Counted from the stretch's first letter, positions 14,443 through 35,130 are shown. The stretch: DNA of 64,000 nucleotides from an uncultured Acidobacteriota bacterium (GCA_963796275.1 CAWCKY010000006.1:1568001-1632000), one strand, 5' to 3'. The notes: generated by a model not told the origin, from the sequence alone. Numbers and translations are program-made.

Positions 14443-14907
14443 TTGGATCGCAGAGTTAATACGGCAATCCAATTTCTGTCCGATGCCATAACTGATGCTG
14501 TTATTGGTAATTTACCAGCCGGATCAGGTCACGATGAATGTGAGATAAAAGATAGATTGTCGCTGGATAAGCTGGCACGATCTGTGAATCTATCCCGGTC
14601 GCGGTTGCGAGCCCTGTTCAAATCTGGAACTGGAATGACTCCGGCGCAATACATAAAGCGCCTCAAAATAGAGAAAGCGAAGGAACTGGCGGAAAAAAGC
14701 AATATGACCATGGGGCAGATTTTAGCGAGTTTAGGAGTCCGTGACGAAAGCCACTTTCGGCGTGACTTCAAGAAAGCCATAGGTATTACTCTCAAAGAGT
14801 GCAGAGACCTCCATTACCAGCAGCCCAAAGAACCGCTTAGTCAAAGATTCCAGTTTTTATCAAGTGTACAGTCAAATCGGCCCGCAAATAGTCAAAACGG
14901 CCAGTGA
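14443..14907 (+). CDS. Short (DNA-binding-domain only) AraC/XylS-family transcriptional regulator
   Basis: LSLDKLARSVNLSRSRLRALFKSGTGMTP.QY...AKEL...G..DESHFRRDFKK..G; TTG start with AAGGAGG SD; no N-terminal sensor domain. Confidence 0.9.
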   Translation: MDRRVNTAIQFLSDAITDAVIGNLPAGSGHDECEIKDRLSLDKLARSVNLSRSRLRALFKSGTGMTPAQYIKRLKIEKAKELAEKSNMTMGQILASLGVRDESHFRRDFKKAIGITLKECRDLHYQQPKEPLSQRFQFLSSVQSNRPANSQNGQ

Positions 14908-14930
14908 ATAGTCATTTAGGCTCTGTTTAT
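14869..14930 (+). promoter_or_regulatory. Three direct repeats at exact 20-bp period; putative AraC-type operator, cassette 1
   Basis: AGTCAAATCGGCCCGCAAAT / AGTCAAAACGGCCAGTGAAT / AGTCATTTAGGCTCTGTTTA at 14870, 14890, 14910; near-identical copy at 25521. Confidence 0.6.
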
Positions 14931-15036
14931 TACTATGAGATATCGATAACTTAAGCTGACTAATCCGAGTGGTTGATATTTAGTCGTTGGCCGGATTTGT
15001 TGTATCCATCTGTCTTCCAAAGGGAGGGTTCATATA

Positions 15037-17553
15037 GTGAAAAGAAATCTTCTGTTTTTATGCATGTTTGCCATGTGGTGTTTCGCCGTCTTGGGTTCGG
15101 GGAAAATTTTCACTAACAGCAGCGCGCAACAAGCCGACATTGAACTTTCGCTGGCTCCTTTGTCGATTCCCGACAATACGATCGGAATCCGTGTGCGAGG
15201 GGCGAGTAAGAACGGCAAGCGTCTGGTCTTCGAATCGGAGAACAATTTTAACGGCGGCAATCCCGATCGAAACCCCGAGATTTTTGTTTTTGATGTCGAT
15301 TCACAAAGTATAATTCAGATAACCAACTCCCAGAATGGGACAACCCCAATAGTTTTTGTCAAAAACCTTACGCCATCGATCAGCGGTGATGGAACCAAGA
15401 TCGTCTTCTCTTCCAATGCGCCTTTGGGCGATATGCTTGACACTGATCACAATTATGAAATGTATTTGGCCAATCTGCCGCCCGGCGCGACGACGGCGAC
15501 GATTAGTCGCCTGACCAAGACCGATCCGGACTTTTTTTGTGGCAACGTGGGTCCAAGCGTCAATGATGACGGCAGTATGATCGTTTTCGTATCGAGATGT
15601 AAGTCCTTCAATGAGACCAATGTTGCAGGGTCATTCACTCCCGATAATCCTGAGGGTAACCCTGAGATTATGGCGCTTCGGCTGGATCCTGGGCAAACGC
15701 GATATCGATATATTCAGGTGACGGGTACGCAAAATTATAATCAGTGCGGGGCTACGTGTTCCAGCCATACTCCGAGAGTCAGCGGCAATGGGATGGTGGT
15801 GGCGTTTCTCTCTTACGGGGATTTTGAGGGCAGAAACGGCGATGCGAACGGGGATTTTGAAAATGAAGAGATTTTCCTGAGCAGGTATGATCTTGGGAGT
15901 AGTAGATTCGCTAACATCATACAGGTCACCGATACCATTGAAAACAACGGTGTGGGGGGAATCGTTCCGATCTTCGATGTAATGACGGGAAAATTCCGAG
16001 TAGATAATAATAGGGCGAGGGGAAACCTGTTTCAGTGGATTATGAATCCGCTGAGCAATGATGGGAGGTGGCTCGTGATGGAGTCGGCGGGAAACTATGA
16101 TGGGATCAATCACAACAAGGCGCGGAACGTCTGGCTTTTCGATACAGTCAACCGCTCTTTTATTAGGCTTACCAATCAGATGGCCTCTCCTGTGCCGACC
16201 CAGGATGAACTGCGGCAACTCGACTATTTCTTCTTTCCCAGCATCAATGCGGCGGGAACATTCATCACTTTCAGCTCGTCGCTCAATCTCACATCGCAGA
16301 ACCCCGATGGCAGCAAAGAGGTTTTCAGGTACGAGATTAACCATGGGAGTCTCCGGCAGCTTACGTTCACCCAGCCTTCGTCCTTCTACGACGATGAGCG
16401 TGACAACTACACATCATCATTTCTCTCTGCCAATGGCGATATCGTGTCATTCAATTATCTGACGCAATCGCTGCAGCCCAACGCAGAGAACGTGATTGGC
16501 CTTTTCCAGATGATCATCCGCCCGGTCACGAGGAGCTCTCCGGGGGCCCGTATCGTTAATGGCGCGAGCTTCGATCCGGCACAGGTCGCGCGGGGCTCGC
16601 TGAGCACAGTCCAGGGCAATGAGCTGGCCAATTCGACTCCATCGGTCCCTGCCAGTCCGCCGTTTATCGTGGATGGCGTATCGGTCTCAGTGGGAGGGAT
16701 CGCGGCGCGGATTACCTATGTCTCGCCGGGACGTGTCAATTTCGTCGTCCCGAATGAAATTGCGACTGGTGATGCGGTTGCTTTCTCAGTCAACAACAAC
16801 GGAGTGCAGTCGGCCGGGACGATCAAGATCGTCGATGCCGCGCCTGGCATCTATAGCGTCGACGGGAGCGGGACAGGAATGCCGACTGCCACCTGTTTAA
16901 GCAAATTCCAGGGCTTTCATGACATTTATTACGACCCTCCGTGCGTAGCGAGTGGGGCCAATCTGGACAGTATTCTATTCTTCTTTGGGACAGGGTGGCG
17001 CAATGCGCTGGGAACCCAGGTCAAGCTCAACGGTATGACACTGACGCCGGTCTACAGCGGGGCTGCAGGCGGGGGAGATCGGAGAGATCAGATCAACCTG
17101 GTAGTGCCTTCCAACCTTGCCGGGTTGACCGATGCCGATATCTCGGTGGTGGCATCAGGGATCAATCTTGAGAGTAATAAATTGAAGGTCTCATTCCAGG
17201 AAATCTCGACGGCCCTTCTCCTCTTGGATAGCAGCAGATGTTTAACTAAGAGGCCCGGGATGCCTGATGAGTACTCATATCCACCGTGTACGGTGAGCAG
17301 CGACACAACAACCGGGATTCTGGTCCTTTATGGCACCGTGTTTAGCAATGCGCCAAGTCTGCAGGTCAAGTTTGAAGAAGTGACATTGAGTCCGGTATAC
17401 AGCGGACCGTCGGGGAATAATCCAGCGATAGATCAGATGAACATCCCGCTGCCACCGAGTCTTGCCGGCAGGACGGGCCATATCTCAGTGATAATTCCCG
17501 GCACCGGCGTCGAGAGCAATAAGGTGAGCATCTCATTCCAGCCGCTTCCGTGA
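15037..17553 (+). CDS. Secreted TolB/PD40-like beta-propeller protein with TIGR03437 (Solibacter C-terminal)-like domain, copy 1
   Basis: Signal peptide; repeated PSISGDG.KIVFSS / PSVNDDG / PRVSGNG / PLSNDG blades with N.D.N.EIF; C-terminal NGASF...ARGSL...GVSVSVGG..A.I.YVSP..VNF.VP...APGIY...DQIN, plus a second copy of the last Ig-like subdomain. Confidence 0.8.
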   Translation: MKRNLLFLCMFAMWCFAVLGSGKIFTNSSAQQADIELSLAPLSIPDNTIGIRVRGASKNGKRLVFESENNFNGGNPDRNPEIFVFDVDSQSIIQITNSQNGTTPIVFVKNLTPSISGDGTKIVFSSNAPLGDMLDTDHNYEMYLANLPPGATTATISRLTKTDPDFFCGNVGPSVNDDGSMIVFVSRCKSFNETNVAGSFTPDNPEGNPEIMALRLDPGQTRYRYIQVTGTQNYNQCGATCSSHTPRVSGNGMVVAFLSYGDFEGRNGDANGDFENEEIFLSRYDLGSSRFANIIQVTDTIENNGVGGIVPIFDVMTGKFRVDNNRARGNLFQWIMNPLSNDGRWLVMESAGNYDGINHNKARNVWLFDTVNRSFIRLTNQMASPVPTQDELRQLDYFFFPSINAAGTFITFSSSLNLTSQNPDGSKEVFRYEINHGSLRQLTFTQPSSFYDDERDNYTSSFLSANGDIVSFNYLTQSLQPNAENVIGLFQMIIRPVTRSSPGARIVNGASFDPAQVARGSLSTVQGNELANSTPSVPASPPFIVDGVSVSVGGIAARITYVSPGRVNFVVPNEIATGDAVAFSVNNNGVQSAGTIKIVDAAPGIYSVDGSGTGMPTATCLSKFQGFHDIYYDPPCVASGANLDSILFFFGTGWRNALGTQVKLNGMTLTPVYSGAAGGGDRRDQINLVVPSNLAGLTDADISVVASGINLESNKLKVSFQEISTALLLLDSSRCLTKRPGMPDEYSYPPCTVSSDTTTGILVLYGTVFSNAPSLQVKFEEVTLSPVYSGPSGNNPAIDQMNIPLPPSLAGRTGHISVIIPGTGVESNKVSISFQPLP

Positions 17554-17562
17554 GATGGCCAT

Positions 17563-17626
17563 CTGAGATTTGAGATTTAATATTCGTCCTTAATACAAAT
17601 TTCAAATTTCAAAATTTCAAAATCTC
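17563..17626. repeat. Heptamer-repeat hairpin (TTTGAGA/TTTCAAA) between propeller gene and rhs gene
   Basis: ctgagatttgagattt ... aaatttcaaatttcaaaatttcaaaatctc; shorter version at ~28223-28270. Confidence 0.55.
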
Positions 17627-17745
17627 TGTGGCCGAGCCTGATTACTGATCACAGCAATATCGTGGTTGGGATTGTTAATAGTCGATTTCGATTATAGATG
17701 ACCGTCCCAGTTTTGTCTCCAGTCGGTCATCAGGAGGTTGAATCT

Positions 17746-20700
17746 ATGTCTCGCCTGCTTGCGAAGTCCTCTCTCTTCTTGGCTCATTCCATTCACTCAG
17801 CTCTTTCCGCGTGTGGAACTCTGCGTGCCGCATTCCGGCAGACAGGAGGCTGTCTGTCGTCACTCTTGCGCGCGCTCATGTTACGACGCGAGCCCGAGAG
17901 ACGGCGATTCGCCCCTTCCGCCATCCATCGTTTCGTCTGCGCCGCGATGGTGATAGTGATGCCTGCCCAGATGGTACTAGCTTCGCCTCAGATTACTCAC
18001 GCCCTGGCGGAGGGCGTCCGGGTGAGATCGATCAATTCGTGGCAGAGGGCGGAGCACTGGTGGGGCGCGAGCGGGTGGGGGGCGAGCTCGGCGCTCTTCG
18101 TGCGAGAGAACCTTCCCTTCCTGGGCTCCGCCAAGCCGCAGAGGAAGGGAGGGGATGGGAGAGGGGCGCCGGCGGGAGAGCGGATGCCGCAGCCGAGACC
18201 GCAGGAGACGCAGGCAGAGCGCCAAGCGCGTGTGGCGCGTGTGGAGGTGATACCTGCAGAGGCCGCCGTCAGACCCGATCAGGAGGTGGAGTTCATCGTC
18301 ATCGGATATGATAGCGATGGTGCGCCGGTCAGCAGCTTGCCGTTTGAGCTGAGCGGAGAGGATGAGAAGACCGGCGAGAGTGTGGCGGTGGGGGGGAAGG
18401 GGAAGTTTGCCGCCTCCCGAGAGGGAGATTACCGGGTGAAGGTCAATGCGTTGGGCCATCGGGCCGAAGCCAGGGTGAAGGTGAATACTGCCCCGGGGGC
18501 GCTGAGTGACAGACCGGTGGTTCCCTATACCTTTTCATCGCGCGACCTGCCACAGGCACCGCGATCCAGTTCGTCGGTTACGCCCGGGAACCGGCGCCCC
18601 GGCAAGCAGAAGGGAAATATCGTAGGAGGATTGGCTTCGAGGTACGCGGCGAGCGGGACGAAGCTGATGGCGGCGATCGCGCAGAGCCAGGGAGACCTCT
18701 ATGGGTGGAACGACGGCAACGCGACGACGGCGGATGATCCCGGATCGGGGCGAGGCATGCCGACCGGAGAGCCGCCCGATGGTGGAGCGGGCAGCGCCAA
18801 TTTCCAGTTCACCGCGCCGGTGCTGGCAGTGGAGGGGCGAGGTCTTGACCTGGATCTGGGGATGTACTACAACGCGCGCGTCTGGCATAAGGCGGGCCCC
18901 GTGATCACCTACAACATCGATAACGAACAAGTGCCCGGCTGGCGGTTCGGCTTGAGTAAGATAGTGGGAATGGGCGAGCAGAGCGGATTTATGATCATGG
19001 AAGCCAACGGGACGCGGCGGTCATACACGTGTACGATCACGCCGCAGCAGCCGATCGGATTCGCAGACTGCAAGACCACCGACGGTTCATTCATCGACTA
19101 CCACGTGGAGGCGTCTTACCCTGGAGGAAAGCCGATCTCGGCGCGGATGGCGCTGTCCAACGGGACGGTGATCACGATGGACACGGCCAACCCATATGGG
19201 TCTGGTCCGAATGCGGTCTACCCGCAGAATATTCAGGATAGTCACGGGAATCGGATAAATATCGCGTATGCGCCCCACTCATTCCCCTATGGAGGGGAGC
19301 CGAAGATTCGCTACATCATCGACACGATGGGGAAGGTGATCGAGTTCTATTATAACGCCGATCACCTGCCGGTAGCGGTGACGGCGCCCGGGTTGGACGG
19401 GACGAGGCGGACGATGGTGCGGATCACCTACGATTGGATAAATAAAAGCAGCCTGGGAACATTCACAAACATGGTTCCGCTGATCCGTAATACTTCATAT
19501 CCACGTGTGAAGGCGATCTATTATCCGGAAAGCAAGACGGGGTGGTGGTTCGGGGATTCCTATTCGGTCTATGGGATGCTGGCGAAGGTAGTCAATCAGC
19601 GGGGAATGAGCTTTAGTGGGGCGTCGCTGCCGGCCGATTCGTTACAACCGGCAGATATGGGAACGATCACGCCTGGAGTGATGACGCACCAGTTGGTCTA
19701 TGACTATCCGATGGTATCGAGCGGATTGAGGGATGAGCCGAGATATCAGACAATGACCGAGACGTGGGCGTATATGGATGAGGCGCCGGCGGTGACGCGA
19801 TATCTGGTGCAGGAGGATGCGACGCCGCGGCGAACGGAGATGACGCGGCCTGACGGGGTGAAGATGGTGATGCTGTCGCATAACGCGCCGGGAGATTTCA
19901 AGGATGGTCGTGTATATCAGAACGAGACCTTCAGCCCGCAGGGAGCGCTGCTGAGCCGGTCATACATCGAATGGGAGGAGGGGAACTGTCCGCAGCCGGG
20001 GCAGGCGCCTGGACCATACGAGTATTGTGCGCCGCGAGTGAGCCGGATAGAGACGACTGATGAACTGGGCCAGACGACGGGCAAAGAATACAGCTATGGG
20101 TCGCACTTCAACCAGGTGGGGGAGACGCGCCTCTATGGGTATGGGTATAAATTTGATGGGACGAAGACGTTGCTGCGGAAGACGAAGACTGAGTATATGA
20201 ATGATGGGAAGTATATCGATTATCGGCAACGAGCGTATGGGAGCCACATCTACAATCTGGTGAAGGCGAGCGAGGTATATGGGGCAGATGGGACGACGCG
20301 GTTGGCGCGCACTGAGTATTCCTATGATGAAAACACAGGGACAGGGGGATTGAAAGATGCGCCTGAGATAACGACAGATGGGTATAACAGTTACTTCAAC
20401 CCGCATAGTACCCCGGGAAACATCGATACGTGGAATCGGGGAGATGTCACGAGTGTCAAACGATACGCGAAGGCGGCGACGCTGGAGGGTGCGATCACCG
20501 GGACGATGGATTACGACACCACGGGGAACGTGGTGAAGGTGGTGCCGCAATGCTGCGGTCAGACGATGATCGAATACACGTTAAACACGCAATACTCGTG
20601 GCCGGAATCGGTGACCAGCGGATCGGTGACTGAGACGACGAAACAGAATAAGACATTCGCGACCTATGATTTCGGCACTGGGCTGTTGAAGAATGAGACC

Positions 20701-23700
20701 GATGCGAATGGACGGATATCGCAATATGAATACATCCCCGGAACGACACGCCCATTAAAAGAGATAGGGCCGACCGGGGCCTACACCTATCACGAGTACG
20801 ATGATGCGGGGCTGAAGGTGATGGACTTCGTCTACAGGGCTGGGGAGAGCGAGGGGGATTTCTCTTCGCGCAGCGATAAATACCTGAATGGGCAGGGCCA
20901 GGTGCGCTTGGCGATCGGGTATGGGAAGGATGACGTGCAGGATCAGGTGGCGAGCCGATATGACCAGATGGGAAGAATGAAGCAGCAGAGCCGGCCGTAC
21001 CGCGATGGGGAGACGCCGCAATGGAGCACGGTGACCTATGATGACCTGGATCGGCCGATGAAGACGACCTCGCCTGACTTGAGCGAAATGACGAGAGCGT
21101 ACAACGAGGAGGTGGAGCCTGAAGGGGCATTGGGGCAGGCGGGGCAGACGGTGCGAGTGAGGGACGCGTGGGGGCGAGAGCACTGGGCGCGCAGAGACGC
21201 GCTGAGGAGGCTGGTGGAGGTCATCGAACCGAATCCGGATGGGGACGGAAGTGTGGGGACAGGCGGGCTGATCACGACCTACAGTTACGATGAGCTGGAT
21301 CGGTTGATTGAGGTGAGGCAGGGAAACCAGAGGCGGAGATTCAGGTATAACTCGTTTGGACAGGTAACGCATCAGAAATTGGCGGAACAGGCTGGGACGC
21401 TCAATGACCAGGGGGAGTATGTTGAGATGGGGGGGCAGTGGAGCAGTGTCTTCAAATACGACCCACGGACGACCCTGATGACAGAGAGCGTGGATGCGCG
21501 TGGGGTGAAGACGGTCTTTGAATACAACGACGATCCGCTCTACCGGGTGCAGACGCTGAGATATGACAAGAGCGGAGTGCCTGCGAGTCTGGCGGGGACG
21601 ATACTGGATGCGGCGAGTGTGGATTACTTCTATATGACGACAGGAGACGTGACGCGGCTGCGGAGTATGGAAGTGGCTTCAGGGATGGGCAACGAGACGA
21701 TGAGCTACGACAGCGAGGGAAGGCCGAGCGAGGTGGTGCGGACCTTTGCGGGACGTGGGGACTATCCGCTGGTGATGAACTATGAGTGGGATGAGCTGGG
21801 TCGGCTGAAAGCGATGACCTATCCGAATCAGTACGGAGCTGGAGATATCCGCAAGAAGGTGGAATACACCTATGACAGCGCGAGCCGGGTCGAGAGTATG
21901 AAGTTCGGGGGAGTGTCCTTCGCCGCCAACCCGGTCTACAACGCAGCGGACCAGACGACGTCGTTGAAGGTTGGTAGCCAGACCGTCGAGAACTATGGCT
22001 ATGACCTGCAGACGGGACTTCTGACGACACAGCAAGTCGTGCGCGGCGGGACGGATAAATTGGTAGATCTGAAGTACAACTACACGCTGACCAATGATGC
22101 GAACAACAGCGGAGCGAAGACGGGGCAACTGACGGGGATCACGGATCTGAAGAACCCGGCGCGCAACCGGATACATAAATACGACAATCTAGGAAGATTG
22201 AAGATGGTCCAGGGAGGAGCCAATGCGTTCACGAGCCCGGACTGGAGTCAGAGCTACAGATATGATCGGTTTGGGAACAAGTTGGGAGTGACGAAGAATG
22301 GTAACTCGCCGCAGATACCGCTGGATGGGATGGGGAGTGTGAGCGTCAACCCACTAAACAACCGGATCACGAGCGCGGGGTTTGCGTATAACGATACGGG
22401 AGATCAGACGAGTGCGGTGATCGACGAAAGCGGGACGCAGCAGCAGAGTCAGTATGATGCGGCAGGGAGGCTGGTGAAGGTGCTGGACGGGAGCGGGACG
22501 ACGGTGCTGGCGAGCTATAGCTACGGAGCGGGCAACCAGCGGCTGATGAGCGTCGAGGGCGGAGTGACGAGGTATTTCGCGTGGGGAGGAGAAGGGATAT
22601 TGAGCGAGTACGAGGCAGTGGGAGCGAGCGGGTTGAAGTGGAAGACGAGTTACGTCTATCTGAGCGGGCAGCTCATGGCGACGACGAGTGGGAGCGATGG
22701 GAGTGAGACGCGATTCCATCACCCGAATCGATTGGGTGGCACGAGGCTGGTGACCGATGCGGCGAATGGGGAGATAGTGGCGGAGCAGTTGAGCTTGCCA
22801 TACGGGACGATGCAGCCGTATGGGGCGTATGGCGGAGACAACTCGTATCAGCACCCGACCAAGAGCAATCCGTCGAGGAAGCGGTTCACGAGCTATGATC
22901 TGGACGATGCGACTGGAATGCATTATGCGGTGAATCGGTATTACAGCAGCCGGCAGGGGCGATTCACGCAGGTCGATCCGATAGTGATGGGATCGGTGGA
23001 GTTGGCGAATCCGCAGAGTTTGAACCTGTATGCGTATGTGGAGGGCGATCCGGTAAACAGTAGAGATCCGTTGGGGCTTGATGGTCTGTCCTTTTCTTTC
23101 GGAGGACCCTATCCGACAGGTGGAGGAGGTGGTGGCTGGTGGAATAGCTTGTTATCGTTTGGGCCGTTTACCTTCAGTTTCGGGTTTGGCAGTGGATTTG
23201 GGGGCCCATTCATTCCATGGTTCCCACTTCCCATGAACAGGATGCTGTTGCTGCAGCAACAACTCGGGATACAGCCAACATACGTGGCGAAGCCACAGGA
23301 GCCCAAACCACTACTGCCGCTGCTACAGGAGCCACCTACGGCTCAACCTTTTGTGAGCAAGAGCCCCTCGATCTCTGAAAGCGATTTCTATTACAACGAG
23401 GAGTATGGTGCGACTTTAAGAATTGGACAAGCATCAGAATCCAAAGCAAGCGCTGATGGTTTTTTTGCCAATGTTAGGAAGTGGCTTCCTGGAAGTTTTG
23501 GCTTGAGTATTGATGCCGCAGCTAATGCTGGTATGGGCATGGGATATAATGCTGTTGGTTCGGCAGGGATTGGCACATTTTCTGGGCGCCCATTTTTCGG
23601 ATTGCCAAATGGAGCATTTGCTAGCGGTGGCGTTTCTGGATATGGAACTAATCACCCATTCAGTTATCCACAGGAAGTGCCGGACAAGATTGGGGGACTT

Positions 23701-25690: not shown

Positions 25691-28213
25691 GTGAAAAGTT
25701 ATATTCTGTTTTTATGCGGGTTTGTCATGTGCTGTTTCACCGTCTTGGGTTCGGAAAATATTCTCACTACCACCAGCGCGCAACAAGCCGACATTGAACT
25801 TTCGCTGGCTCTGTTGCCGATTCCCGGCAATACGGTCGGAATTCGTGTGCGCGGGGCGAGTAGGAACGGCAAGCGTCTGGTCTTCGAATCGGAGAACAAT
25901 TTTAACGGCGGCAATCCCGACCGAAACCCCGAGATTTTTGTCTTTGATATCGATTCCCAAAGTATCATTCAGATAACTAACTCCCAGAATAGGGCGCACC
26001 CCTTCGTCTATGTCAAAAACCTTACGCCATCGATCAGCGGTGATGGATCCAAGATCGTCTTCTCTTCCAATGCGCCTTTGGGCGATATGCCGAACACTAA
26101 TTACAATAGTGAAATCTACCTGGCCAATCTGCCGCCCGGCGCGACGACGGCGACGATCCGTCGCCTGACCAAGACCACCGAACCGAACTGTAGCATCGGG
26201 AATCCAAGCGTCAATGATGACGGCAGTATGATCGTTTTCGGATCGGGTTGTAAGGTCTTCAATGAGACCAATGTTGCAGGGTCATTTACTGCCGATATTC
26301 CTGCGTATAGTGCCGAAATTATGGCGCTTCGGCTGGATCCTGGGCAAACGCGATATCGATACATTCAGGTGACGGGTTCGCAAAATTATAACGACTGCGA
26401 GGGTACCTGTTCCAGCCATACTCCGAGAGTCAGTGGCAATGGGATGGTGGTGGCGTTTCTCTCTTACGGGAATTTTGAGGGCAGAAACGTCGATGCGAAC
26501 GGGGATTTTCAGAGTGGTAATGAAGAGATTTTCCTAAGCAGGTATGATCTTGGGAGTAGTAGATTCACCAACATCATACAGGTCACCGATACCCTTGAAA
26601 ACAACGGTGTGGGGGGAATCGTTCCGATCTTCGATGTAATGACGGGAAAATTCCGAGTAGATAATAATAGGGCGAGGGCAAACCTGTTTCCGCCGTATAT
26701 AAATCCGCTGAGCAATGATGGGAGGTGGCTCGTGATGGAGTCGGCGGGAAACTATGATGGGATCAATCACAACAAGGCGCGGAACGTCTGGCTTTTCGAT
26801 ACAGTCAACCGCTCTTTTATTAGGCTTACCAATCAGATGGCCTCTCCTATGCCGACCCAGGATGAGCTGGGGCGGCTGGACCATACTTTCACACCCAGCA
26901 TCGATGCGGCGGGAACATTCATAACTTTCTGCTCGTCGCTCAATCTCACATCGCAGAACCCCGATGGCAGCAAAGAGGTTTTCAGGTACGAGATTAACAA
27001 CGGGACTCTCCGGCAGCTCACTTTCACCCAGCCTTCGTCTTTCTTCGACGATCAGCGTTACAACTTCACATCATCGTTTCTAACTGAAAATGGCGATATG
27101 GTGTCATTCAATTATCTCACGCAATCGCTGCAGCCCAACGCCCAGAACGTTATGGGCCTTTTCCAGATGATTATCCGCCCGATAACCAGCCCCAACAATG
27201 TGGGGACGGCTATCGGCAATGCGGCAAGCTTCAACACGAACCAGATCGCGCGCGGGTCACTCGCTATCTCCCTTGGCACTCAGATCGCGGGGGCCGTGTC
27301 CCCGGCCTCGCTGCCATTCGTGCTCAATGGGGTATCAGTCAGGGTAGGCCAGGTGGCGGCGCGGATCGCCTCGATAGTAGATGGAAGAGTCACATTCTTG
27401 ATGCCAAATGAAATTGCGACTGGAGTGATCGATTACTCGATCAACGATAACGGAGTGCAACATACGGGTAATGTAGTAATCGTGGATGCAGCGCCTGGAA
27501 TCTATACCATCGACGGGGGCGGGACAGGAGATTCGACCGCCTATTGTTACAGCATATACCGGAACGGGACAGATGGTTACTCGGATCTTCCGTGCGCGGC
27601 GAGTAACAACGACGCGACCAATTTTCTGGTCATCGTGGGGACGGGCTGGCGTAATTCTCCTGGGGGTACCCAGGTCAAGATCAACGGGACAACATTGAAT
27701 TCGAGCTATAGCGGCGCGACCGGGCTTCTCACTCAGGATCAGATCAACGTCATTCTCCCGTCGTATCTCGCCGGATTGCAGAATGCCGAACTCTCGGTGG
27801 TGATTCCCGGCAGCGGGCTTGAGAGCAACAGGGTGCCGATCTCATTCCAGGGTACGCCGACATCCCCAACCATTTTGGAGGGCAATGATGGTGTCGATTG
27901 TGTGAGCTCAAGGCTTGGGCAGCCCGACACCTACTCGGAGCCGCCGTGTGTGGTGAGCAATGGCTCAACAATGAGGCTCCTGGTCCTCTATGGATTTGGG
28001 TGGCGCAATGCGCCGAATCTGCAGGTCAAGTTTGAGGAATTGATACTGAATCCGAGCTACAGCGGCCCGTTGGGGAATAATCCAGCGATAGATCAGATGA
28101 ACATCATACTACCATCGAGTCTTGCCGGCAGGACGGGCCATATCTCAGTGATAATTCCCGGCACCGGCGTCGAGAGCAATAAGGTGAGCATCTCATTCCA
28201 GCCGCTTCCGTGA
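25691..28213 (+). CDS. Secreted beta-propeller/TIGR03437-like protein, copy 2
   Basis: Paralog of 15037-17553; GTG 25691 after AAGGAGG matches the copy 1 start; identical C-terminal SLAGRTGHISVIIPGTGVESNKVSISFQPLP. Confidence 0.8.
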   Translation: MKSYILFLCGFVMCCFTVLGSENILTTTSAQQADIELSLALLPIPGNTVGIRVRGASRNGKRLVFESENNFNGGNPDRNPEIFVFDIDSQSIIQITNSQNRAHPFVYVKNLTPSISGDGSKIVFSSNAPLGDMPNTNYNSEIYLANLPPGATTATIRRLTKTTEPNCSIGNPSVNDDGSMIVFGSGCKVFNETNVAGSFTADIPAYSAEIMALRLDPGQTRYRYIQVTGSQNYNDCEGTCSSHTPRVSGNGMVVAFLSYGNFEGRNVDANGDFQSGNEEIFLSRYDLGSSRFTNIIQVTDTLENNGVGGIVPIFDVMTGKFRVDNNRARANLFPPYINPLSNDGRWLVMESAGNYDGINHNKARNVWLFDTVNRSFIRLTNQMASPMPTQDELGRLDHTFTPSIDAAGTFITFCSSLNLTSQNPDGSKEVFRYEINNGTLRQLTFTQPSSFFDDQRYNFTSSFLTENGDMVSFNYLTQSLQPNAQNVMGLFQMIIRPITSPNNVGTAIGNAASFNTNQIARGSLAISLGTQIAGAVSPASLPFVLNGVSVRVGQVAARIASIVDGRVTFLMPNEIATGVIDYSINDNGVQHTGNVVIVDAAPGIYTIDGGGTGDSTAYCYSIYRNGTDGYSDLPCAASNNDATNFLVIVGTGWRNSPGGTQVKINGTTLNSSYSGATGLLTQDQINVILPSYLAGLQNAELSVVIPGSGLESNRVPISFQGTPTSPTILEGNDGVDCVSSRLGQPDTYSEPPCVVSNGSTMRLLVLYGFGWRNAPNLQVKFEELILNPSYSGPLGNNPAIDQMNIILPSSLAGRTGHISVIIPGTGVESNKVSISFQPLP

Positions 28214-28389
28214 GACGGCCATCTGAGATTTGAGATTTAATATTCGTCCTTAATTCAAATTTCAAATCTCTGTGGCCGAGCCTGATTACTGATCACAGCA
28301 ATATCGTGGTTGGGATTGTTAATAGTCGATTTCGATTATAGATGACCGTCCCAGTTTTGTCTCCAGTCGGTCATCAGGAGGTTGAACCT

Positions 28390-31300
28390 ATGTCTCGCCT
28401 GCTCGAGAAATCCTCTCTCTTCTTGGCCCATTTCATTCACAGAGCTCTTTCCGCGTGTGGAACTCTGCGCGCCGCATTCCGGCAGACACGATGCTGCCTG
28501 TCGTCACTTTTGCGAGCGCTCCTGTTTCGCCGCGAGGCCGAGAGAGGGCGTTTCGCCGTGTCGACCATCCATCGGTTCGTCTGTGCGGTGATGGTGATGG
28601 TGATGCCTGCCCAGATGGTCGTAGCTTCACCTCAGATTTCCCACTCCGTGGCGGAGACGGTCTCGCTAAGAACGATCAATGGGTGGCAGCAGGTGGATCA
28701 CTGGTGGGCCTCGAGCGGATGGGAGGAGAGGACAGAGCGCTTCGTGCGTGAGAACCTTCCCTTCCTGCGCACCGCCACGCCGCAAAGGAAGGGCTGGGAT
28801 GGGAGAGGGGCGCCGGCGGGAGAGCGGATGCCGGAGCCGAGACCGCAGGAGAGTCAGGCAGAGCGCCATGCGCGAGTGGTGCGTGTGGAGGTGATCCCGG
28901 ATGAAGTCACGGTCAGACCCGATCAGCCGGTAGAGTTCATCGTCATCGGATATGACAGCAATAATGCGCCGGTCAGCAGCCTGTCGTTTGAGCTGAGCGG
29001 GGAAGATGAGAAGACCGGGGAGCAGGTGAATGTAGCAGGGAAAGGGAAGTTTGCAGCCTCAAGAGAGGGAGAATACCGGGTGAAGGTCAATGCGTTGGGT
29101 CATCAGGCCGAAGCCCGGGTGAGTGTGAAGGCCGCCCCCCAAGCGCTGAGTGACAGACCGGTGGTTCCCTATACCTACTCATCGCGCGAGGTGGCGCCGG
29201 CGCCGCGATCGACTTCGTCTGTACAGCCGAAGAGCGGGCGCACCGGCAGGCAGAGAGGAAAGATCGCCGGTGGGTGGGCTAGCAGGTACGCGGCGAGCGG
29301 GACGAAGCTGATGGCAGCGATCGCGCAGAGCGGAGATCAGTATGGCTGGAACGACGGCAACGCGGGGACGGCGGACAATCCCGGGTCTCGGCGTGGGACG
29401 CCGGCCGGAGAGCCGCCCGATGGGGGAGCGGGCAACTCCAATTACCAATTCACGGCGCCGGTTCTGGCGGTGGAGGGGCGAGGTCTGGATCTGGATCTGG
29501 GGATGTACTACAACTCGCGGGTATGGCATAAGGCGGGCTTCGTCGTCACCCACGACATCGATCGCGATTGGCCGGCGCCCGGCTGGGAATTCGGGTTCAG
29601 CAAGATCGTGGGGATGGGAGAGCAGAGCGGCTATATGATCATGGAAGCCAACGGGACGAGGCGGCCATACACCTGCACGATCACGCCGCAGCAGCCGATC
29701 GGGTTCGCCGACTGCAAGACGACGGACGGATCATTCATCGATTACCACGTGGAGGCGAATTTTCCGGGAGGAAAACCGATCTCGGCGCGGATGGTGCTTT
29801 CCAACGGGACGGTGATCACGATGGACTCGGCCAATCCATATGGGTCTGGTCCCAATGCGGTCTACCCGCAGAATATTCAGGATAGTCACGGGAATCGGAT
29901 AAATATCGCGTATGTGCCGCACTCATTCCCATATGGCGGGGAGCCGAAGCTACGCTACGTCATCGACACGATGGGGAAGGTGATCCAGTTCTATTACGAT
30001 GCCAATAACCTGCCGGTGGCGGTGACAGCGCCGGGATTGGACGGGACGAGGAGAACGGTGGTGCGGATCACCTACGAATGGAAGAACAAAAGCAGCCTGG
30101 GAAGTTTCGCCAACCTGGTACCGCTGGTCCGAGGTAATACATTTCCGGTGGTGAAGGGGATCTATTATCCGGAGAGCCAGACGGGGTGGTGGTTCGGCGA
30201 CACGGATTCATATTCAGCGTATGGGATGATCGCGAAGGTAGTCAATCAGCGAGGGATGGGCTTCAGCGGGGCGGCGCTGCCGGCCGATTCGTTACAACCG
30301 GCAGATATGGGAACGATCACGCCTGGAGTGATGACGCACCAGTTGGTCTATGACTATCCGATGGTATCGAGCGGATTGAGGGATGAGCCGAGATACCAGA
30401 CGATGACCGAGACGTGGGCGCATATGGATGAGGCGCCGGCGGTGACGCGATATCTGGTGCAGGAGGATGCGACGCCGCGGCGAACGGAGATGACGCGGCC
30501 TGACGGGGTGAAGATGGTGATGCTGTCGCATAACGCGCCGGGAGATTTCAAGGATGGTCGTGTATATCAGAACGAGACGTACAGCCCGCAGGGAGCGCTG
30601 CTGAGCCGATCATACATCGAATGGGAGGAGGGGAACTGTTCGCAGCCGGGGCAGGCGCCGGGGCAATACGAGTACTGTGCGCCGCGCGTGAGCCGGATAG
30701 AGACGACTGATGAACTGGGCCGGAAGACGGGCAAAGAGTTCAGCTACGGGTCGCTCTTCAATCAGGTGGAGGAGGCGCGTCTATATGGCTACGGGTATAA
30801 ATTTGATGGGGCGAAGACGTTGCTGCGGAAGACGAAGACTGAGTATATGAATGATGGGAAGTATATCGATTATCAGCAGCGAGCGTATGGGAGCCATATC
30901 TACAATCTGGTGGCGGCGAGCGAGGTATATGCGGGGGACGGCACGACGCGGCTGTCGCGCGTCGAGTATTCCTATGATGAAAACACCGGGACAGAGGGAT
31001 TGAAAAACGCGCCCGGGATAACGACAGACGGATATAACGATTTCTTCAATCCGCATACTAACCCGACGAGCGAGAGTACGTGGAGTCGAGGAGACGTGAC
31101 GGCAGTCAAGCGATACGCAAAGGCGGCGACGCTGGAAGCCGGGAGCGCGATCAGCGAGACGATGAATTACGACGTGACGGGGAATGTGGTGAAGGTGGTG
31201 CCGCAATGCTGCGGGCAGACGACGATCAATTACACGGCGAACACGCAATACGCGTGGCCGGAATCGGTGACCAGCGGATCGGCGAGTGAGGAGACGAAAC

Positions 31301-34300
31301 AGAATACGAGTTCATCGACCTACGATTTCAACACGGGACTGGTGAAGACGGTGACCGACGCGAATGGGCGAACATCGCAGTACCAATACATTCCCGGAAC
31401 GACGCGGCCATTAAAGGAGATTGGGCCGACGGGGGCCTACACCTATCACGAGTACGATGATGCGGGGCTGAAGGTGATGGACTTCGCCTACAGGGCTGGG
31501 GAGAGCGAGGGGGATTTCTCTTCGCGCAGTGATAAATACCTGAATGGGCAGGGCGGAGTGCGGCTGGCGATCGCGTATGGGAAGGATGACGTGCAGGATC
31601 AGGTGGCGATCAAATATGACCAGATGAGGAGAGTGAAGCAGCAGAGCCGGCCGTACCGCAGTGGGGAGACGCCGCAATGGAGCACTGTAACCTATGATTA
31701 TCTGGATCGGCCGATGAAGACGACCTCGCCTGACTTGAGCGAAATGACGAGAGCGTACAACCAGGGGGAGGAGCCTGAGGGAGCATCAGGGGAAGCCGGG
31801 CAGACGGTGCGAGTGACGGATGCATGGGGGAGGGAGCGATGGGCGCTGAGTGATGCGCTGGGGAGGCTGGTGAAGGTGATCGAGCCGAAAGCGGATGGGG
31901 ACGGAAAGGTAAACACGGATGGGATGGTGACGACCTACAAGTACGATGACCTGGATCGCTTGATAGAGGTGAGGCAGGGAGAGCAGATACGGAGATTCAG
32001 GCACAACTCGTTTGGACAGATAACGCACCAGAAATTGGCGGAACAGGCTGGGACGCTCAATGACGCGGGTGAGTATGTCGAGACGGGCCAGTGGAGCAGT
32101 GTCTTCAAATACGACCCGCGCACGAGCCTGATGATTGAGAGCGTGGATGCGCGGGGGGTGAAGACCAAATTCGACTACGACGACGATGTGTTCGACCGGC
32201 TGCAGAAGATGAGCTATGACAAGAGCGGAGTGCTGGGGAGTCTGGTGGGGACGATACCGGATGCGGCGAGCGTGGAATATTTTTATATGACGACGGGAGA
32301 CGTGACGCGAGTGCGGAGTATGGTCGTAGGATCAGGGATGGGGAACGAGACGATGAGCTACGACAGCGAGGGAAGGTTGAGCGAGGTGAGGCGGACCTTC
32401 GCCGGGCGAGGAAGCTATCCGCTGGTGATGAACTATGAGTGGAACACGCTGGGACAGCTGACGGCGATGACCTATCCGGCGCAGTACGGAGCGGGAGATA
32501 TGCGCAAGAAGGTGGAATACACCTATGACAAGGCGAGCCGGATGGAGAGTCTGAAGTTCGGAGGAGTGACCTTCGCCTCCGAGCCCGTCTACAACGCAGC
32601 GGACCAGATGGCGTCGTTGAAGATGGGGAGCCAGATCGTGGAGAACTATGGCTATGACGTGAAGACGGGACTGCTGACGACGCAGGATGTGGTGCGCGGC
32701 GGGACGGATAAATTGGTGGATTTGAAGTACAACTACACGCTGACCAATGCTGCTAATAACAACGGGGCGAAGACGGGGCAGCTGACTGGGATCGAGGATC
32801 TGAAGAACCCGGCGCGCAACCGGATACATGTATATGACAACCTGGGAAGATTGAAGAGTGTCAGTGGAGGAACAAATGCGTTCACGAGCCCGGACTGGAG
32901 TCAGAGTTACGCTTATGACCGGTTTGGGAACAAATTGGGAGTGACGAAGAGTGGGAATGCGCCGCAGATACCGCTGGACGGAATGGGGAGTGTGAGCGTC
33001 AACCCGGAGACCAACCGGATCACGAGCGCTGGTTTCGCGTATGACGATGGGGGAAATCAGACGAAGGTAGTGATCGATGGGAGCGGGACGCAGCAGCAGA
33101 GTCAGTATGATGCGGCGGGGAGACTGGTGAAGGTGCTGGACGGGAGCGGGACGACGGTGGTGGCGAGCTACAGCTACGGAGCGGGGAACCAGCGGCTGAT
33201 GAGCGTCGAGGGAGGAGTGACGAGATATTACGGATGGGGAGAAGGGGGAATAATCTGTGAGTACGAGGCTGCAGGTGCGAGCGGGTTGCAGTGGAAGACG
33301 AGCTACGTCTATCTGGGCGGGCAACTGATGGCGACGACGAGCGGGAGCGACGGGAGTGAGACGCGATTTCATCACCCTGATCGATTGAGCGGGACGAGGC
33401 TGGTGACCGATGCGGCGAATGGAGAGGTGGTGGCGGAGCAGTTGAGCTTGCCATACGGGACGATGCAACCGTACGGGGCGTATGGGGGAGACAACTCGTA
33501 TCGGCACGCAACCAAGAGCAATCCGTCGAGGAAGCGGTTCACGAGCTATGATCTGGACGATGCGACTGGAATGCATTATGCGGTGAATCGGTATTACAGC
33601 AGCCGGCAGGGGCGATTCACGCAGGTCGATCCGATAGGGATGGGATCGGTGGAGTTGGCGAATCCGCAGAGTTTGAATCTGTATGCGTATGTGGAGGGCG
33701 ATCCGGTAAACAGTCGAGATCCGTTGGGGCTTGATGGTCTGTCCTTTTCTTTCGGAGGACCCTATCCGACAGGTGGAGGAGGTGGTGGCTGGTGGAACAG
33801 CTTGTTATCATTTGGGCCGTTTACCTTCAGTTTCGGGTTTGGCAGTGGATTTGGGGGTCCATTCATTCCATGGTTCCCGCTTCCCATGAACAGGATGCTG
33901 TTGCTGCAGCAACAACTCGGGATACAGCCAACATACATGGCGAAGCCACAGGAGCCAAAACCACTACTGCCGCTGCTACAGGAGCCACCTACGGCTCAAT
34001 CCATAGTAACGAAGTCTGGGTCTGGTGGTCAGGAAGGTACAAGTAATGGTCGTAGACGTCCAAGCTGGGAAGAGCTAGATAGACTATTAAATCCTACTGA
34101 TGAGGATTACAAGAGAATTTGGCTTGAAAGGTTTCCTAGCCATGATGGAATGGTGCCTGACCCGACCCAGCCACCGATAAGCCAATGGATTTATGGGCGT
34201 AGGATGGTGCACTATTCTCAAATAGCCACTGAAGATTACAAATACGGATTTATCCGTTTTGAGCCAAGTGTACCAGGTGGTGGCGTCGGTATAGGAATGG

Positions 34301-34464
34301 CTAAAAAGGCAGATATCAAATGGATAAAATGGGTTGTCAAGAAGATCGGGTTAAGCAAAGATCAAAAGCGGATTCTTCACGATACAATCACAGGTGAAAA
34401 TCTCACGAAGGAAGAGATTAAACAGATTGCTGAAGAAATTAAAAAGAATTTTCCCAACAAGTGA
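28390..34464 (+). CDS. rhs: RHS/YD-repeat polymorphic toxin, copy 2 (basic helical C-terminal tip)
   Basis: Paralog of RHS1 up to nt 33999; same DPVNSRDPLGL core end; unrelated AT-rich tip ending KKIGLSKDQKRILHDTITGENLTKEEIKQIAEEIKKNFPNK. Confidence 0.93.
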   Translation: MSRLLEKSSLFLAHFIHRALSACGTLRAAFRQTRCCLSSLLRALLFRREAERGRFAVSTIHRFVCAVMVMVMPAQMVVASPQISHSVAETVSLRTINGWQQVDHWWASSGWEERTERFVRENLPFLRTATPQRKGWDGRGAPAGERMPEPRPQESQAERHARVVRVEVIPDEVTVRPDQPVEFIVIGYDSNNAPVSSLSFELSGEDEKTGEQVNVAGKGKFAASREGEYRVKVNALGHQAEARVSVKAAPQALSDRPVVPYTYSSREVAPAPRSTSSVQPKSGRTGRQRGKIAGGWASRYAASGTKLMAAIAQSGDQYGWNDGNAGTADNPGSRRGTPAGEPPDGGAGNSNYQFTAPVLAVEGRGLDLDLGMYYNSRVWHKAGFVVTHDIDRDWPAPGWEFGFSKIVGMGEQSGYMIMEANGTRRPYTCTITPQQPIGFADCKTTDGSFIDYHVEANFPGGKPISARMVLSNGTVITMDSANPYGSGPNAVYPQNIQDSHGNRINIAYVPHSFPYGGEPKLRYVIDTMGKVIQFYYDANNLPVAVTAPGLDGTRRTVVRITYEWKNKSSLGSFANLVPLVRGNTFPVVKGIYYPESQTGWWFGDTDSYSAYGMIAKVVNQRGMGFSGAALPADSLQPADMGTITPGVMTHQLVYDYPMVSSGLRDEPRYQTMTETWAHMDEAPAVTRYLVQEDATPRRTEMTRPDGVKMVMLSHNAPGDFKDGRVYQNETYSPQGALLSRSYIEWEEGNCSQPGQAPGQYEYCAPRVSRIETTDELGRKTGKEFSYGSLFNQVEEARLYGYGYKFDGAKTLLRKTKTEYMNDGKYIDYQQRAYGSHIYNLVAASEVYAGDGTTRLSRVEYSYDENTGTEGLKNAPGITTDGYNDFFNPHTNPTSESTWSRGDVTAVKRYAKAATLEAGSAISETMNYDVTGNVVKVVPQCCGQTTINYTANTQYAWPESVTSGSASEETKQNTSSSTYDFNTGLVKTVTDANGRTSQYQYIPGTTRPLKEIGPTGAYTYHEYDDAGLKVMDFAYRAGESEGDFSSRSDKYLNGQGGVRLAIAYGKDDVQDQVAIKYDQMRRVKQQSRPYRSGETPQWSTVTYDYLDRPMKTTSPDLSEMTRAYNQGEEPEGASGEAGQTVRVTDAWGRERWALSDALGRLVKVIEPKADGDGKVNTDGMVTTYKYDDLDRLIEVRQGEQIRRFRHNSFGQITHQKLAEQAGTLNDAGEYVETGQWSSVFKYDPRTSLMIESVDARGVKTKFDYDDDVFDRLQKMSYDKSGVLGSLVGTIPDAASVEYFYMTTGDVTRVRSMVVGSGMGNETMSYDSEGRLSEVRRTFAGRGSYPLVMNYEWNTLGQLTAMTYPAQYGAGDMRKKVEYTYDKASRMESLKFGGVTFASEPVYNAADQMASLKMGSQIVENYGYDVKTGLLTTQDVVRGGTDKLVDLKYNYTLTNAANNNGAKTGQLTGIEDLKNPARNRIHVYDNLGRLKSVSGGTNAFTSPDWSQSYAYDRFGNKLGVTKSGNAPQIPLDGMGSVSVNPETNRITSAGFAYDDGGNQTKVVIDGSGTQQQSQYDAAGRLVKVLDGSGTTVVASYSYGAGNQRLMSVEGGVTRYYGWGEGGIICEYEAAGASGLQWKTSYVYLGGQLMATTSGSDGSETRFHHPDRLSGTRLVTDAANGEVVAEQLSLPYGTMQPYGAYGGDNSYRHATKSNPSRKRFTSYDLDDATGMHYAVNRYYSSRQGRFTQVDPIGMGSVELANPQSLNLYAYVEGDPVNSRDPLGLDGLSFSFGGPYPTGGGGGGWWNSLLSFGPFTFSFGFGSGFGGPFIPWFPLPMNRMLLLQQQLGIQPTYMAKPQEPKPLLPLLQEPPTAQSIVTKSGSGGQEGTSNGRRRPSWEELDRLLNPTDEDYKRIWLERFPSHDGMVPDPTQPPISQWIYGRRMVHYSQIATEDYKYGFIRFEPSVPGGGVGIGMAKKADIKWIKWVVKKIGLSKDQKRILHDTITGENLTKEEIKQIAEEIKKNFPNK

Positions 34465-34474
34465 TAGAGGAGAT

Positions 34475-34987
34475 ATGAAGATTCAAGTTGAGGATGCATT
34501 GAAAGTGATCATTGGCAAAATATTTTGGGGAGCAGGCCGTGCTGGTGAAATACAATGGTTCCAGTTTGGAAACAAACAAGTAATAGTAACAGAACGTGAA
34601 ACCATTAAAGAAGTGGGTGAGTATGCATTACACGTGCAATGTGCTTGGCGAATCACCTCTCCAAAGGGGATTTTCGTTGGATCCCAAGATAAATATCTTC
34701 CAGCGAATGACTCCAATGAGCAAGCTGATGATTTTGATTGGGATCAACCAGGCGTCAATCGTTGTGATGATAGAATATCCATGCTTTTCAATGGACGGGA
34801 ATCCCATACCCTGTTAGTTAAGAATGTATCGGCTGATTCTTATGGTGGATTCTGCCTAAACTTGAGTGACAATTTTTCTATTGAGGTTTTCCCGGACCTC
34901 TCTCTTGACGATGAGTGCTGGAGGCTGTTCCAACCTTACAAAAATGGCCCGCATTTTATTGTCACCGGGGAAGGAATTGAAATGTAG
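34475..34987 (+). CDS. Soluble acidic protein, candidate immunity protein for RHS2
   Basis: Starts 10 nt after the toxin stop with GAGGAG SD; low GC; GEYALHVQCAWRI...E.WRLF motif; no signal peptide. Confidence 0.7.
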   Translation: MKIQVEDALKVIIGKIFWGAGRAGEIQWFQFGNKQVIVTERETIKEVGEYALHVQCAWRITSPKGIFVGSQDKYLPANDSNEQADDFDWDQPGVNRCDDRISMLFNGRESHTLLVKNVSADSYGGFCLNLSDNFSIEVFPDLSLDDECWRLFQPYKNGPHFIVTGEGIEM

Positions 34988-35130
34988 CGAAGTTACTAGT
35001 TGTAACTGGAGCGAGTCAATGAGTTTGAATTATGCAGTAAACCGGTACTCACAACAAGAGAGGGCAGGTTCAAGCAGATCGATCCGAGTGAGATGGGATC
35101 TGGCGAACCTGCAGAGTTCGAATCTATACT
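34988..35130 (+). pseudogene. Decayed RHS core fragment (orphan-module relic)
   Basis: Reads LNYAVNRYS.., GRFKQIDP, LANLQSSNLY across frames; compare MHYAVNRYYSSRQGRFTQVDP...LANPQSLNLY in both rhs genes. Confidence 0.75.

Follow-up and report, generated by a model that had tools for sequence, protein, structure and literature searches.

Tandemly duplicated, putative Sec-exported RHS toxin/immunity cassettes beside a propeller paralogue in a Blastocatellia genome

We analysed a stretch of 64,000 nucleotides (hereafter the window) from an uncultured Acidobacteriota bacterium (GCA_963796275.1 CAWCKY010000006.1:1568001-1632000), which occupies positions 1568001-1632000 of contig C6 in a Blastocatellia genome of 9.46 Mb and seven contigs. 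An island of ~21 kb lies there, bordered on one side by an FHA-domain gene and on the other by one for lactate permease, with housekeeping genes and a polysaccharide cluster as its flanks. Within the island an AraC-type regulator gene is followed by two co-linear units, each with a gene for a signal-peptide beta-propeller protein carrying TIGR03437 domains (prop1, prop2), a gene for an RHS protein with a unit-specific end (rhs1, rhs2) and small downstream genes (Table 1). An initial annotation had proposed that the propeller and RHS proteins are dedicated partners in an undescribed toxin delivery system. Our analysis favours, with a probability of roughly 65%, a different reading, namely that these are Sec-type RHS toxin/immunity cassettes, probably under AraC control, whose tandem duplication took in a neighbouring propeller paralogue, and that the two genes do not form a conserved two-gene delivery system.

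Profile searches identified the ~2000-residue products of rhs1 and rhs2 as RHS proteins, as had been annotated. RHS repeats were matched by PF05593 (Pfam) at 1.1e-17 and 2.3e-25, the TIGR03696 core scored 58 and 62.5 bits (cut-off, 32.5), and the motif DPLGL (DPxGL), by its sequence an aspartyl autoproteolysis motif at which cleavage is predicted, occupies residues 1790-1794 of the rhs1 open reading frame (ORF) and 1793-1797 of the rhs2 ORF, followed in each by the variable tip. The genes likely start at the ATG codons 17746 and 28390, each with AGGAGG 8 nt upstream; the third paralogue of the genome (L001) shows the same arrangement, with stop codons further upstream. Beginning at ATG 17746, a leader of ~80 residues has in its last part a basic stretch and a hydrophobic core, with a VLA/SPQ site; when read by eye it looks like an extended Sec signal peptide, as the initial annotation had assumed in calling the RHS protein Sec-exported. 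The basic stretch, hydrophobic core and LA-x site recur across 13 aligned homologues, and some of these begin only shortly ahead of the core; the window proteins have ~60 extra residues ahead of this signal-peptide-like core compared with the homologues. The RHS N-termini of L127, L137, L140 and L141 have an extended leader in common with window positions 17746-17990, in which a conserved basic Phe-Arg-Ser-like stretch lies 25-30 residues before the hydrophobic core; such leaders are reminiscent of the extended signal peptides of autotransporters. After the leader come two conserved Trp-rich motifs, an Ig-like domain (weak CarboxypepD_reg match) and the shell. The Gly/Phe-rich segment behind DPLGL is under the strongest constraint in the whole RHS gene, as judged by the ratio of nonsynonymous to synonymous divergence (dN/dS) between units. 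A similar Gly/Phe-rich stretch stands behind DPLGL in L126, and the segment may serve as a module for membrane translocation that travels with the toxin.

Comparison of the two window halves by blastn aligned 14848-23346 with 25499-33999 at 85.5% identity over 8551 columns, an alignment which encloses the two units as originally delimited (14869-23346 and 25521-33999). Since the units are only 85% identical and their divergence is mosaic, an assembly duplicate or artefact was ruled out as their source. DNA identity between them is 85-96% in the propeller part of the prop genes, 56-64% in the TIGR03437 part (16580-17357), and 91-100% from the final ~200 bp of the propeller gene through the intergenic leader into the RHS 5' end, which leaves the description of the intergenic leader as near-identical intact apart from a 16-bp indel. 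Over the RHS body identity ranges from 78 to 98%, with 95-98% immediately before the break at 23343/33996; beyond this point homology ends, GC content falls to 0.37-0.47, and each unit continues, as annotated, with its own AT-rich tip and its own downstream genes. Synonymous divergence (dS) follows the same mosaic, with values of 0.13-0.21 for the propeller part and the prop 3' end, ~1.0 for the TIGR03437 part, 0.24-0.45 for the RHS body and 0.08 for the Gly/Phe-rich linker. The dN/dS ratio stays under 1 throughout, apart from the first 30 propeller codons (3.8, in a signal peptide with few sites) and from RHS codons 1-16, in which there are zero synonymous changes, and its maximum in the RHS gene is 0.79, at residues 101-190. 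For the TIGR03437 part, a dS of ~1 together with a dN/dS of 0.39-0.44 indicates an older or imported segment, and positive selection on it was rejected. The island also contains remnants of a propeller 3' end (25280-25472, 75.6% identical to 17371-17561 by blastn), of an araC 3' end and of an RHS core, the last as left by displaced rhs ends, and these three remnants record repeated recombination at the locus.

Table 1. Features of the duplicated island, with positions counted from the first nucleotide of the window (aa, amino acids; HTH, helix-turn-helix).
Feature	Position	Strand	Remarks
AraC-type HTH-only regulator, 154 aa	14443-14907	+	HTH_18 1.2e-19, HTH_AraC 3.2e-17 (Pfam)
Unit 1 direct repeats AGTCAWWWMGGC, three, exact 20-bp spacing	14870/14890/14910 (14870-14921)	+	Overlap araC end, upstream of prop1
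prop1, signal-peptide PD40 beta-propeller with TIGR03437 beta-sandwich domains, 838 aa	15037-17553	+	PD40 3.2e-11; TIGR03437 2.1e-33, residues 506-716
Intergenic leader	17554-17745	+	Near-identical in both units except for 16-bp indel; AGGAGG 17732-17737
rhs1, 2076 aa from ATG 17746 (ORF open from 17698)	17746-23976	+	Leader, Ig-like domain, RHS shell, TIGR03696 core, DPLGL
Gly/Phe-rich segment after DPLGL, 88 residues	23080-23343 (unit 2: 33733-33996)	+	98.9% identical between rhs1 and rhs2; dN/dS 0.06
Tip 1, 210 aa, glycine-rich with hydrophobic stretches	23344-23973	+	Homology between units stops at 23343
130-aa protein with N-terminal transmembrane stretch; candidate immunity protein for tip 1	24280-24672	+	AT-rich; no Pfam/NCBIfam family
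154-aa ORF with lipoprotein-like signal (VVSC); second candidate immunity or accessory protein for tip 1	24669-25133	+	AT-rich; DUF3887 6.3e-06, below cut-off
Degraded propeller 3'-end remnant	25308-25433	+	62% identical to prop1 residues 788-829; tblastn 3.9e-12
araC remnant, last 17 codons	25506-25556	+	Directly after propeller 3' remnant; contains first two unit 2 repeats
Unit 2 direct repeats AGTCAWWWMGGC, identical to unit 1	25522/25542/25562 (25522-25573)	+	Third lies after araC remnant
prop2, 839 aa from GTG 25694 (ORF open from 25637)	25694-28213	+	72% identical to prop1
rhs2, 2024 aa from ATG 28390 (ORF open from 28342)	28390-34464	+	84% identical to rhs1 up to tip
Tip 2, 155 aa	33997-34461	+	Last 55 residues (34297-34461) form three-helix module with invariant His
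170-aa cytoplasmic-looking protein; candidate immunity protein for tip 2	34475-34987	+	No signal peptide by eye
Degraded, frameshifted RHS core remnant (residues ~1731-1778)	34995-35134	+	tblastn 7e-4 to 1e-3, two frames

The TIGR03437 domain is present in both propeller proteins (NCBIfam; 115.9 bits for prop1 and 87.6 bits for prop2, for which GTG 25694 is the likely start, against a cut-off of 29.05). The initial annotation had the proteins ending in this domain; it lies near the C-terminus, with a partial further copy behind it. The AlphaFold2 model of prop1 (mean predicted local distance difference test, pLDDT, 71.4) consists of a helix at residues 2-24, the signal helix, followed by an all-beta structure, and its best Foldseek matches (E 5e-12 to 1e-10) were to generic PD40 propellers, those of S9 peptidases, oligogalacturonate lyase and TolB. 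With TolB and other PD40 propellers the N-terminal ~500 residues thus share PD40 repeats and a fold (Foldseek E ~1e-10 to TolB entries). Only the propeller fold is in common, however, since the prop proteins carry TIGR03437 domains, have no tol-pal context, and reach 25.7 and 26.9 bits with the TolB equivalog model, far from its cut-off of 343.15. The genome contains 15 TIGR03437 matches, of which prop1 and prop2 are the only ones that adjoin an RHS gene, and our literature search found no paper mentioning TIGR03437.

Matches to the propeller family were found in 24 of 24 genomes of the same taxonomic family and hardly outside it, and a metagenome scan with prop1 found no relative. We surveyed the neighbourhoods of this gene in one genome per species, which gave 77 loci, 47 of them with at least 5 kb of downstream sequence. 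Upstream gene families recur in 25-42 of the 77, so that the gene has a fixed upstream synteny (in L080, the upstream ORFs are GlmS- and GlmU-like by eye from their first residues). The genome studied here also has a syntenic copy, on contig C3 (L002 8201-11192), which is presumably ancestral and is split into two overlapping frames, either by a frameshift or by a (long-read) assembly error. In a FastTree tree of 74 rows, to which ORFs were admitted from 650 aa upwards, along with the two C3 pieces, prop1, prop2 and the C-terminal C3 piece grouped on a long branch, for which the tool gave a long-branch warning, and the grouping is suggestive. By sequence and synteny, prop1 and prop2 are best classed as extra paralogues of a conserved Blastocatellia gene for a secreted PD40/TIGR03437 protein. 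Several contigs with this Blastocatellia-specific gene and its synteny (e.g., L048, L052, L055 and L061) are labelled Heliomicrobium or Heliobacteriaceae, seemingly a taxonomic mislabel.

An RHS gene was found downstream of the propeller gene in 2 of the 47 informative loci (L047 and L080; L047 is the same sequence as L037 and was counted once, and L050, which may belong to the G004 assembly, was left out of the counts), and in neither is it adjacent. The order in these two loci is propeller, AraC-like gene, a gene for a signal-peptide protein, RHS, a small gene, and further pieces of araC or RHS genes. Their RHS proteins belong to another subfamily, 26% identical to rhs1, and the loci fall into different clades of the propeller tree, the other members of which have no island. 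In L050 an AraC-like gene follows the propeller and the contig then ends. The proteins encoded between araC and RHS, in the slot which the propeller takes in the window, are 249-308 aa long (L080 14099-14848; L037 11136-12062, minus strand), 23% identical to each other (E 9e-18) and without Pfam or NCBIfam match.

The survey from the RHS side led to the same result. Homologues of the RHS N-terminal part were detected in 17 of 41 relatives and, with a threshold of E<=1e-25, in 26 of 87 family genomes; genome G004 is one row only in these tallies and in that of 24 of 24 above. Of the 31 loci of the RHS subfamily, one of them from the same genus, 25 extend 3 kb or more upstream of the RHS gene, and a propeller gene precedes it in none of the 31 (0/31). 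Unrelated genes stand upstream, among them SASA esterase/SelB, integrases, DUF3108, peptidoglycan-binding and biotin carboxylase genes. A TIGR03437 protein encoded two genes upstream of the RHS homologue in L140 was considered and rejected; it is metalloprotease-like, with M10/M43 matches below the Pfam cut-offs, and is no propeller protein, and an opposite-strand gene lies between. The third RHS paralogue of the genome, on contig C4, is intact (2042 aa, 58% identity) and is preceded by neither a propeller nor an araC gene; the nearest upstream gene on its strand encodes a dienelactone hydrolase. In L123, which holds the closest outside homologue (48% identity), an AraC-like gene stands directly upstream of the RHS gene with no accessory gene between. 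Taken together, the two surveys show that, among the loci covered, the propeller-RHS pairing is confined to this genome, essentially the outcome that the initial annotation had itself named as refuting its idea; the conserved adjacency that marks pairs such as CdiB/CdiA and mafA/mafB is missing from both sides, and the proposal that the propeller is a dedicated RHS partner is not supported. Co-duplication of the two genes, from which that proposal had been drawn, needs no partnership because one segmental duplication suffices.

It is the AraC-like gene, and not the propeller, that repeatedly accompanies the RHS cassettes. The window regulator (HTH_18, 70.8 bits against a cut-off of 33.6) has the double HTH of AraC/XylS proteins and no ligand-binding domain, and relatives 40-46% identical to it head RHS cassettes in L037/L047, L080 (twice) and L123. 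These HTH-only genes (L037 12145-12546, minus strand; L080 13408-13881 and 20976-21365; L123 1560-1856, minus strand) come from several Blastocatellia genomes, and the cassettes that they head represent two different RHS subfamilies; their best NCBIfam match, far under the model cut-off, is a regulator adjoining YSIRK-signal surface proteins. As initially annotated, the two units have the same operator-like element, three identical direct repeats upstream of each propeller gene. Six matches to the pattern were found in the window against 0.14 expected, a statistic that is circular because the pattern was derived from the same sites. The paired form of the repeat occurs nowhere else in the 9.46 Mb genome and is absent from the 140 other loci examined, and a search for inverted repeats ahead of the propeller genes found none. 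Direct repeats phased by 20 bp, or two helical turns, would suit an AraC-type protein, and the regulator probably acts on the three repeats upstream of both propeller genes.

The two tips differ in how widely they are found. Tip 1 matched no Pfam or NCBIfam family and had no homologue among 2123 candidates of 369-2000 aa; its best Atlas score was 0.89, and a PDB sequence search gave nothing better than E 0.019. It probably attacks the envelope or the membrane, because it is glycine-rich and the genes next to it encode one membrane protein and one lipoprotein-like protein; an analogy is offered by Tse4 and other glycine-zipper pore formers. Tip 2 gave 80 matches at E<=0.001, one of which covers residues 31-155 (63% identity) and the others the last 55 residues only. 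This module forms the very end of RHS-repeat proteins in 5 of 10 scanned matches and of a PT-HINT protein in 1 of 10, and it also occurs free-standing, in ORFs of ~55 aa. It was seen in many metagenomes (proteins P0003, P0008, P0004, P0019 and P0063), and a Met at its first position is retained even when it is fused. The module was modelled as a three-helix bundle with pLDDT 84-97. Tip 2 has no Pfam family, a best Atlas score of 0.87, no PDB sequence or profile match and no Foldseek match at E<=0.001, and its best VIA Z of 6.9, to generic three-helix bundles, is below the informative level for helical folds. The adjoining 170-aa protein has 176 homologues at E<=0.001 among 191 candidates, none with a Pfam domain; tip 2 probably acts in the cytoplasm, because this partner is cytoplasmic-looking. 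The tips would be toxins and the genes downstream of them would confer immunity. Tips, linker and immunity candidates do not recur elsewhere in this genome or in loci L001-L141.

Two further neighbourhoods deserve mention. On the minus strand of the window, 47470-51258 encodes a secreted-looking protein of 1262 aa with four Big_7 domains, a metallophosphatase domain and one fn3 domain, next to a polysaccharide biosynthesis cluster with asparagine synthases, glycosyltransferases, deacetylases and a Wzy-like gene (42769-63961). In another genus, L031 (1-11931) holds a broken homologue of the RHS subfamily beside a RelA/SpoT, SurA-like and ABC-F block, and this block matches window positions 3241-9394, ~5 kb upstream of the island, with proteins 59-75% identical. 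RHS genes may have landed repeatedly in this neighbourhood.

Under the reading favoured here, that of tandemly duplicated Sec-type cassettes, each copy would consist of a long leader, an Ig-like domain, an RHS cage, DPLGL, the Gly/Phe-rich linker and a unit-specific toxin tip, followed by its immunity gene or genes. The AraC regulator would head the island and act on the repeats, and propeller, RHS and immunity genes would probably be co-transcribed. The RHS protein would cross the inner membrane by Sec, enclosing the cleaved tip, and then reach neighbouring cells by an outer-membrane route that is unexplained for the whole class. The adjacency of propeller and RHS would be peculiar to this lineage, a juxtaposition that one segmental duplication copied and that patchy gene conversion altered later.

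Several observations weigh against this reading. RHS cassettes stand by a propeller orthologue in two of 47 loci, from different clades, and L050 may be added to these, which is above the rough ~1% expected by chance (our own estimate from 5-10 RHS genes per genome of 6-9 Mb); two or three cases are a mild excess, and some link, whether an insertion hot spot or a function, is likely. The operator-like repeat is upstream of the propeller gene and not of the RHS gene, and the propeller-RHS junction is the best-conserved part of the duplication, both of which a functional operon would fit as well. The leader of ~80 residues far exceeds a classical signal peptide, with cleavage and Sec use judged by eye. 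Finally, tip 1 has no detected relatives, and toxicity and immunity are read from sequence context.

One alternative retains a role for the propeller as a dedicated accessory (a surface anchor, adhesin, outer-membrane export helper or chaperone), a housekeeping paralogue having been co-opted in this lineage. Co-duplication of propeller and RHS behind one operator-like repeat per propeller gene fits this idea, as do a junction that is 91-100% identical against ~85% elsewhere and the finding of no terminator-like site on the plus strand between the propeller and RHS genes. The window copies are moreover extra paralogues while the positional orthologue on C3 is split in two frames, and the araC-RHS slot of L047 and L080 is filled by another signal-peptide protein. 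The TIGR03437 part is the most divergent between units; its dS and dN/dS mark it, however, as an older or foreign segment and not as a target of positive selection. Against co-option also stand the 31 RHS loci with no propeller, the direct araC-RHS succession in L123 and the third paralogue, which is intact although it has no propeller. A complex prediction of RHS residues 97-285 with propeller residues 31-838, both with alignments, returned a score of 0.00 (mark, 0.32) and counts neither way. On balance we regard an accessory function of the propeller as unlikely. A wider version of the idea, which we hold to be similarly doubtful, is that the RHS islands of Blastocatellia are modular, with an AraC regulator, a secreted accessory, a Sec-exported RHS protein and immunity genes, and that the variable accessory aids the passage of the cage to the surface or the target; the accessory slot may then be filled by the co-opted propeller paralogue here and by the familyless 249-308 aa protein in L047 and L080.

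A second alternative is that the 3' flank of the propeller gene is a functionless insertion hot spot for AraC-headed RHS islands, and that the window represents such a site, copied to another place in the genome along with a portion of the propeller gene. The island of L047 and of L080 lies precisely in the interval from the propeller orthologue to the otherwise conserved downstream genes, sister loci such as L107 (87% identical propeller) have no island, and synteny at the propeller locus, kept elsewhere, varies on its downstream side; in the window, too, a propeller 3' remnant is directly followed by an araC 3' remnant, the order of L047 and L080. Yet there are two clear cases only, the RHS subfamilies of the window and of L047/L080 differ (26% identity), which leaves a shared descent of the islands hypothetical, and no attachment-site integrase, tRNA or repeat was seen, although no search was aimed at them. 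We therefore consider a hot spot improbable as the explanation of the window.

Profile scans of the RHS proteins gave no match to PAAR, VgrG, SpvB/TcB or DUF1795, even a threshold of E<=1 giving no PAAR within residues 1-420, and no Pfam match to the SpvB/TcdB N-terminal or mid domains in the RHS proteins or their neighbours, as a Tc BC assignment would entail. Type VI secretion system (T6SS) families are likewise missing from the larger window ORFs scanned, which include no adjoining vgrG, eag or T6SS gene of the kind that accompanies PAAR-Rhs effectors, nor is there a prePAAR motif. These results agree with the initial annotation, which had seen no PAAR, VgrG, WXG100, SpvB/TcB or EagR partner at the RHS N-termini and no T6SS genes in the window. 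The genome as a whole contains 11 TIGR03696 matches, one secretin (C6:1121413), one T6SS sheath gene, TssC (C3:1496478), and three PAAR matches, one of them inside a 1504-aa RHS frame on C7; this PAAR-bearing RHS protein is encoded separately from rhs1 and rhs2, and two RHS delivery classes therefore coexist in the genome. That rhs1 and rhs2 encode T6SS cargo loaded in trans, without a PAAR of its own, is a conceivable use of TssC and the three PAAR proteins and is nevertheless very unlikely, given the missing PAAR, VgrG and adaptor families, the signal-peptide-like leader kept in homologues, and the separate PAAR-bearing RHS gene on C7.

Tandemly duplicated Sec-type cassettes also find counterparts among described systems. 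Table 1 of Zhang et al. (2012; PMC3482391) has RHS repeats with a signal peptide (Sec or type II secretion system, T2SS) among the trafficking classes of polymorphic toxins, which tells against the claim of an undescribed delivery system. WapA of Bacillus subtilis is the studied Gram-positive example of a Sec-type RHS protein (PMC4436062). Sec/T2SS RHS toxins and WapA share with the window proteins RHS repeats with a core, a variable C-terminal end and displaced remnants behind; their N-terminal signal peptide, in place of PAAR, LXG or two-partner secretion (TPS) domains, the toxicity of the end and the immunity gene directly downstream have putative counterparts in the window. Unlike them, the window proteins have a leader of ~80 residues, an Ig-like domain, an 88-residue Gly/Phe-rich segment and tips outside Pfam. 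The host, unlike that of WapA, is a diderm Acidobacterium, and export therefore requires an outer-membrane step that WapA does not face. With the T6SS Rhs effectors (PAAR-Rhs, VgrG, Eag) the window proteins have in common the RHS cage, the TIGR03696 core, DPxGL and polymorphic tips with immunity genes, here candidate ones; they differ in lacking PAAR/prePAAR, in having no vgrG, eag or T6SS genes in the window and in their signal-peptide-like leader. The closest precedent for the idea of a propeller partner is, by analogy, the mafA-mafB-mafI system of Neisseria, in which (PMC4287609) a gene for a secreted or surface protein lies directly upstream of a signal-peptide polymorphic toxin gene in a putative operon, with immunity genes and spare ends behind, several copies per genome and an unexplained outer-membrane route. 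In that account MafB has no RHS repeats and MafA is a lipoprotein and not a propeller. The same source reports that two of the three MafB classes frequently have mafA upstream, and that MafB was still secreted after mafA had been deleted (PMC4287609); the propeller-RHS pairing, in contrast, is confined to one genome.

Within what is otherwise probably an ordinary locus of bacterial conflict, some parts are new, namely both tips, the 55-residue module, the post-cleavage linker and the AraC-headed cassettes. The main value of the result is negative, in that duplication of a gene pair, taken alone, misled the reading of the two as partners, the propeller family being a conserved gene with its own syntenic home. 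Our literature search found no paper on how Sec-type RHS toxins of Acidobacteriota cross the outer membrane or enter their targets; in diderms at large such toxins are common in genome catalogues, with outer-membrane crossing and target entry unexplained. The two paralogous cassettes, which differ in their tips, are a natural and tractable pair, and a candidate AraC operator comes with them; further assets are the Gly/Phe-rich post-cleavage segment, a possible translocation module, and the widespread 55-residue module, which is outside the family libraries. If true, the modular accessory plan would begin to explain how the Sec-type RHS toxins of diderms leave the cell.

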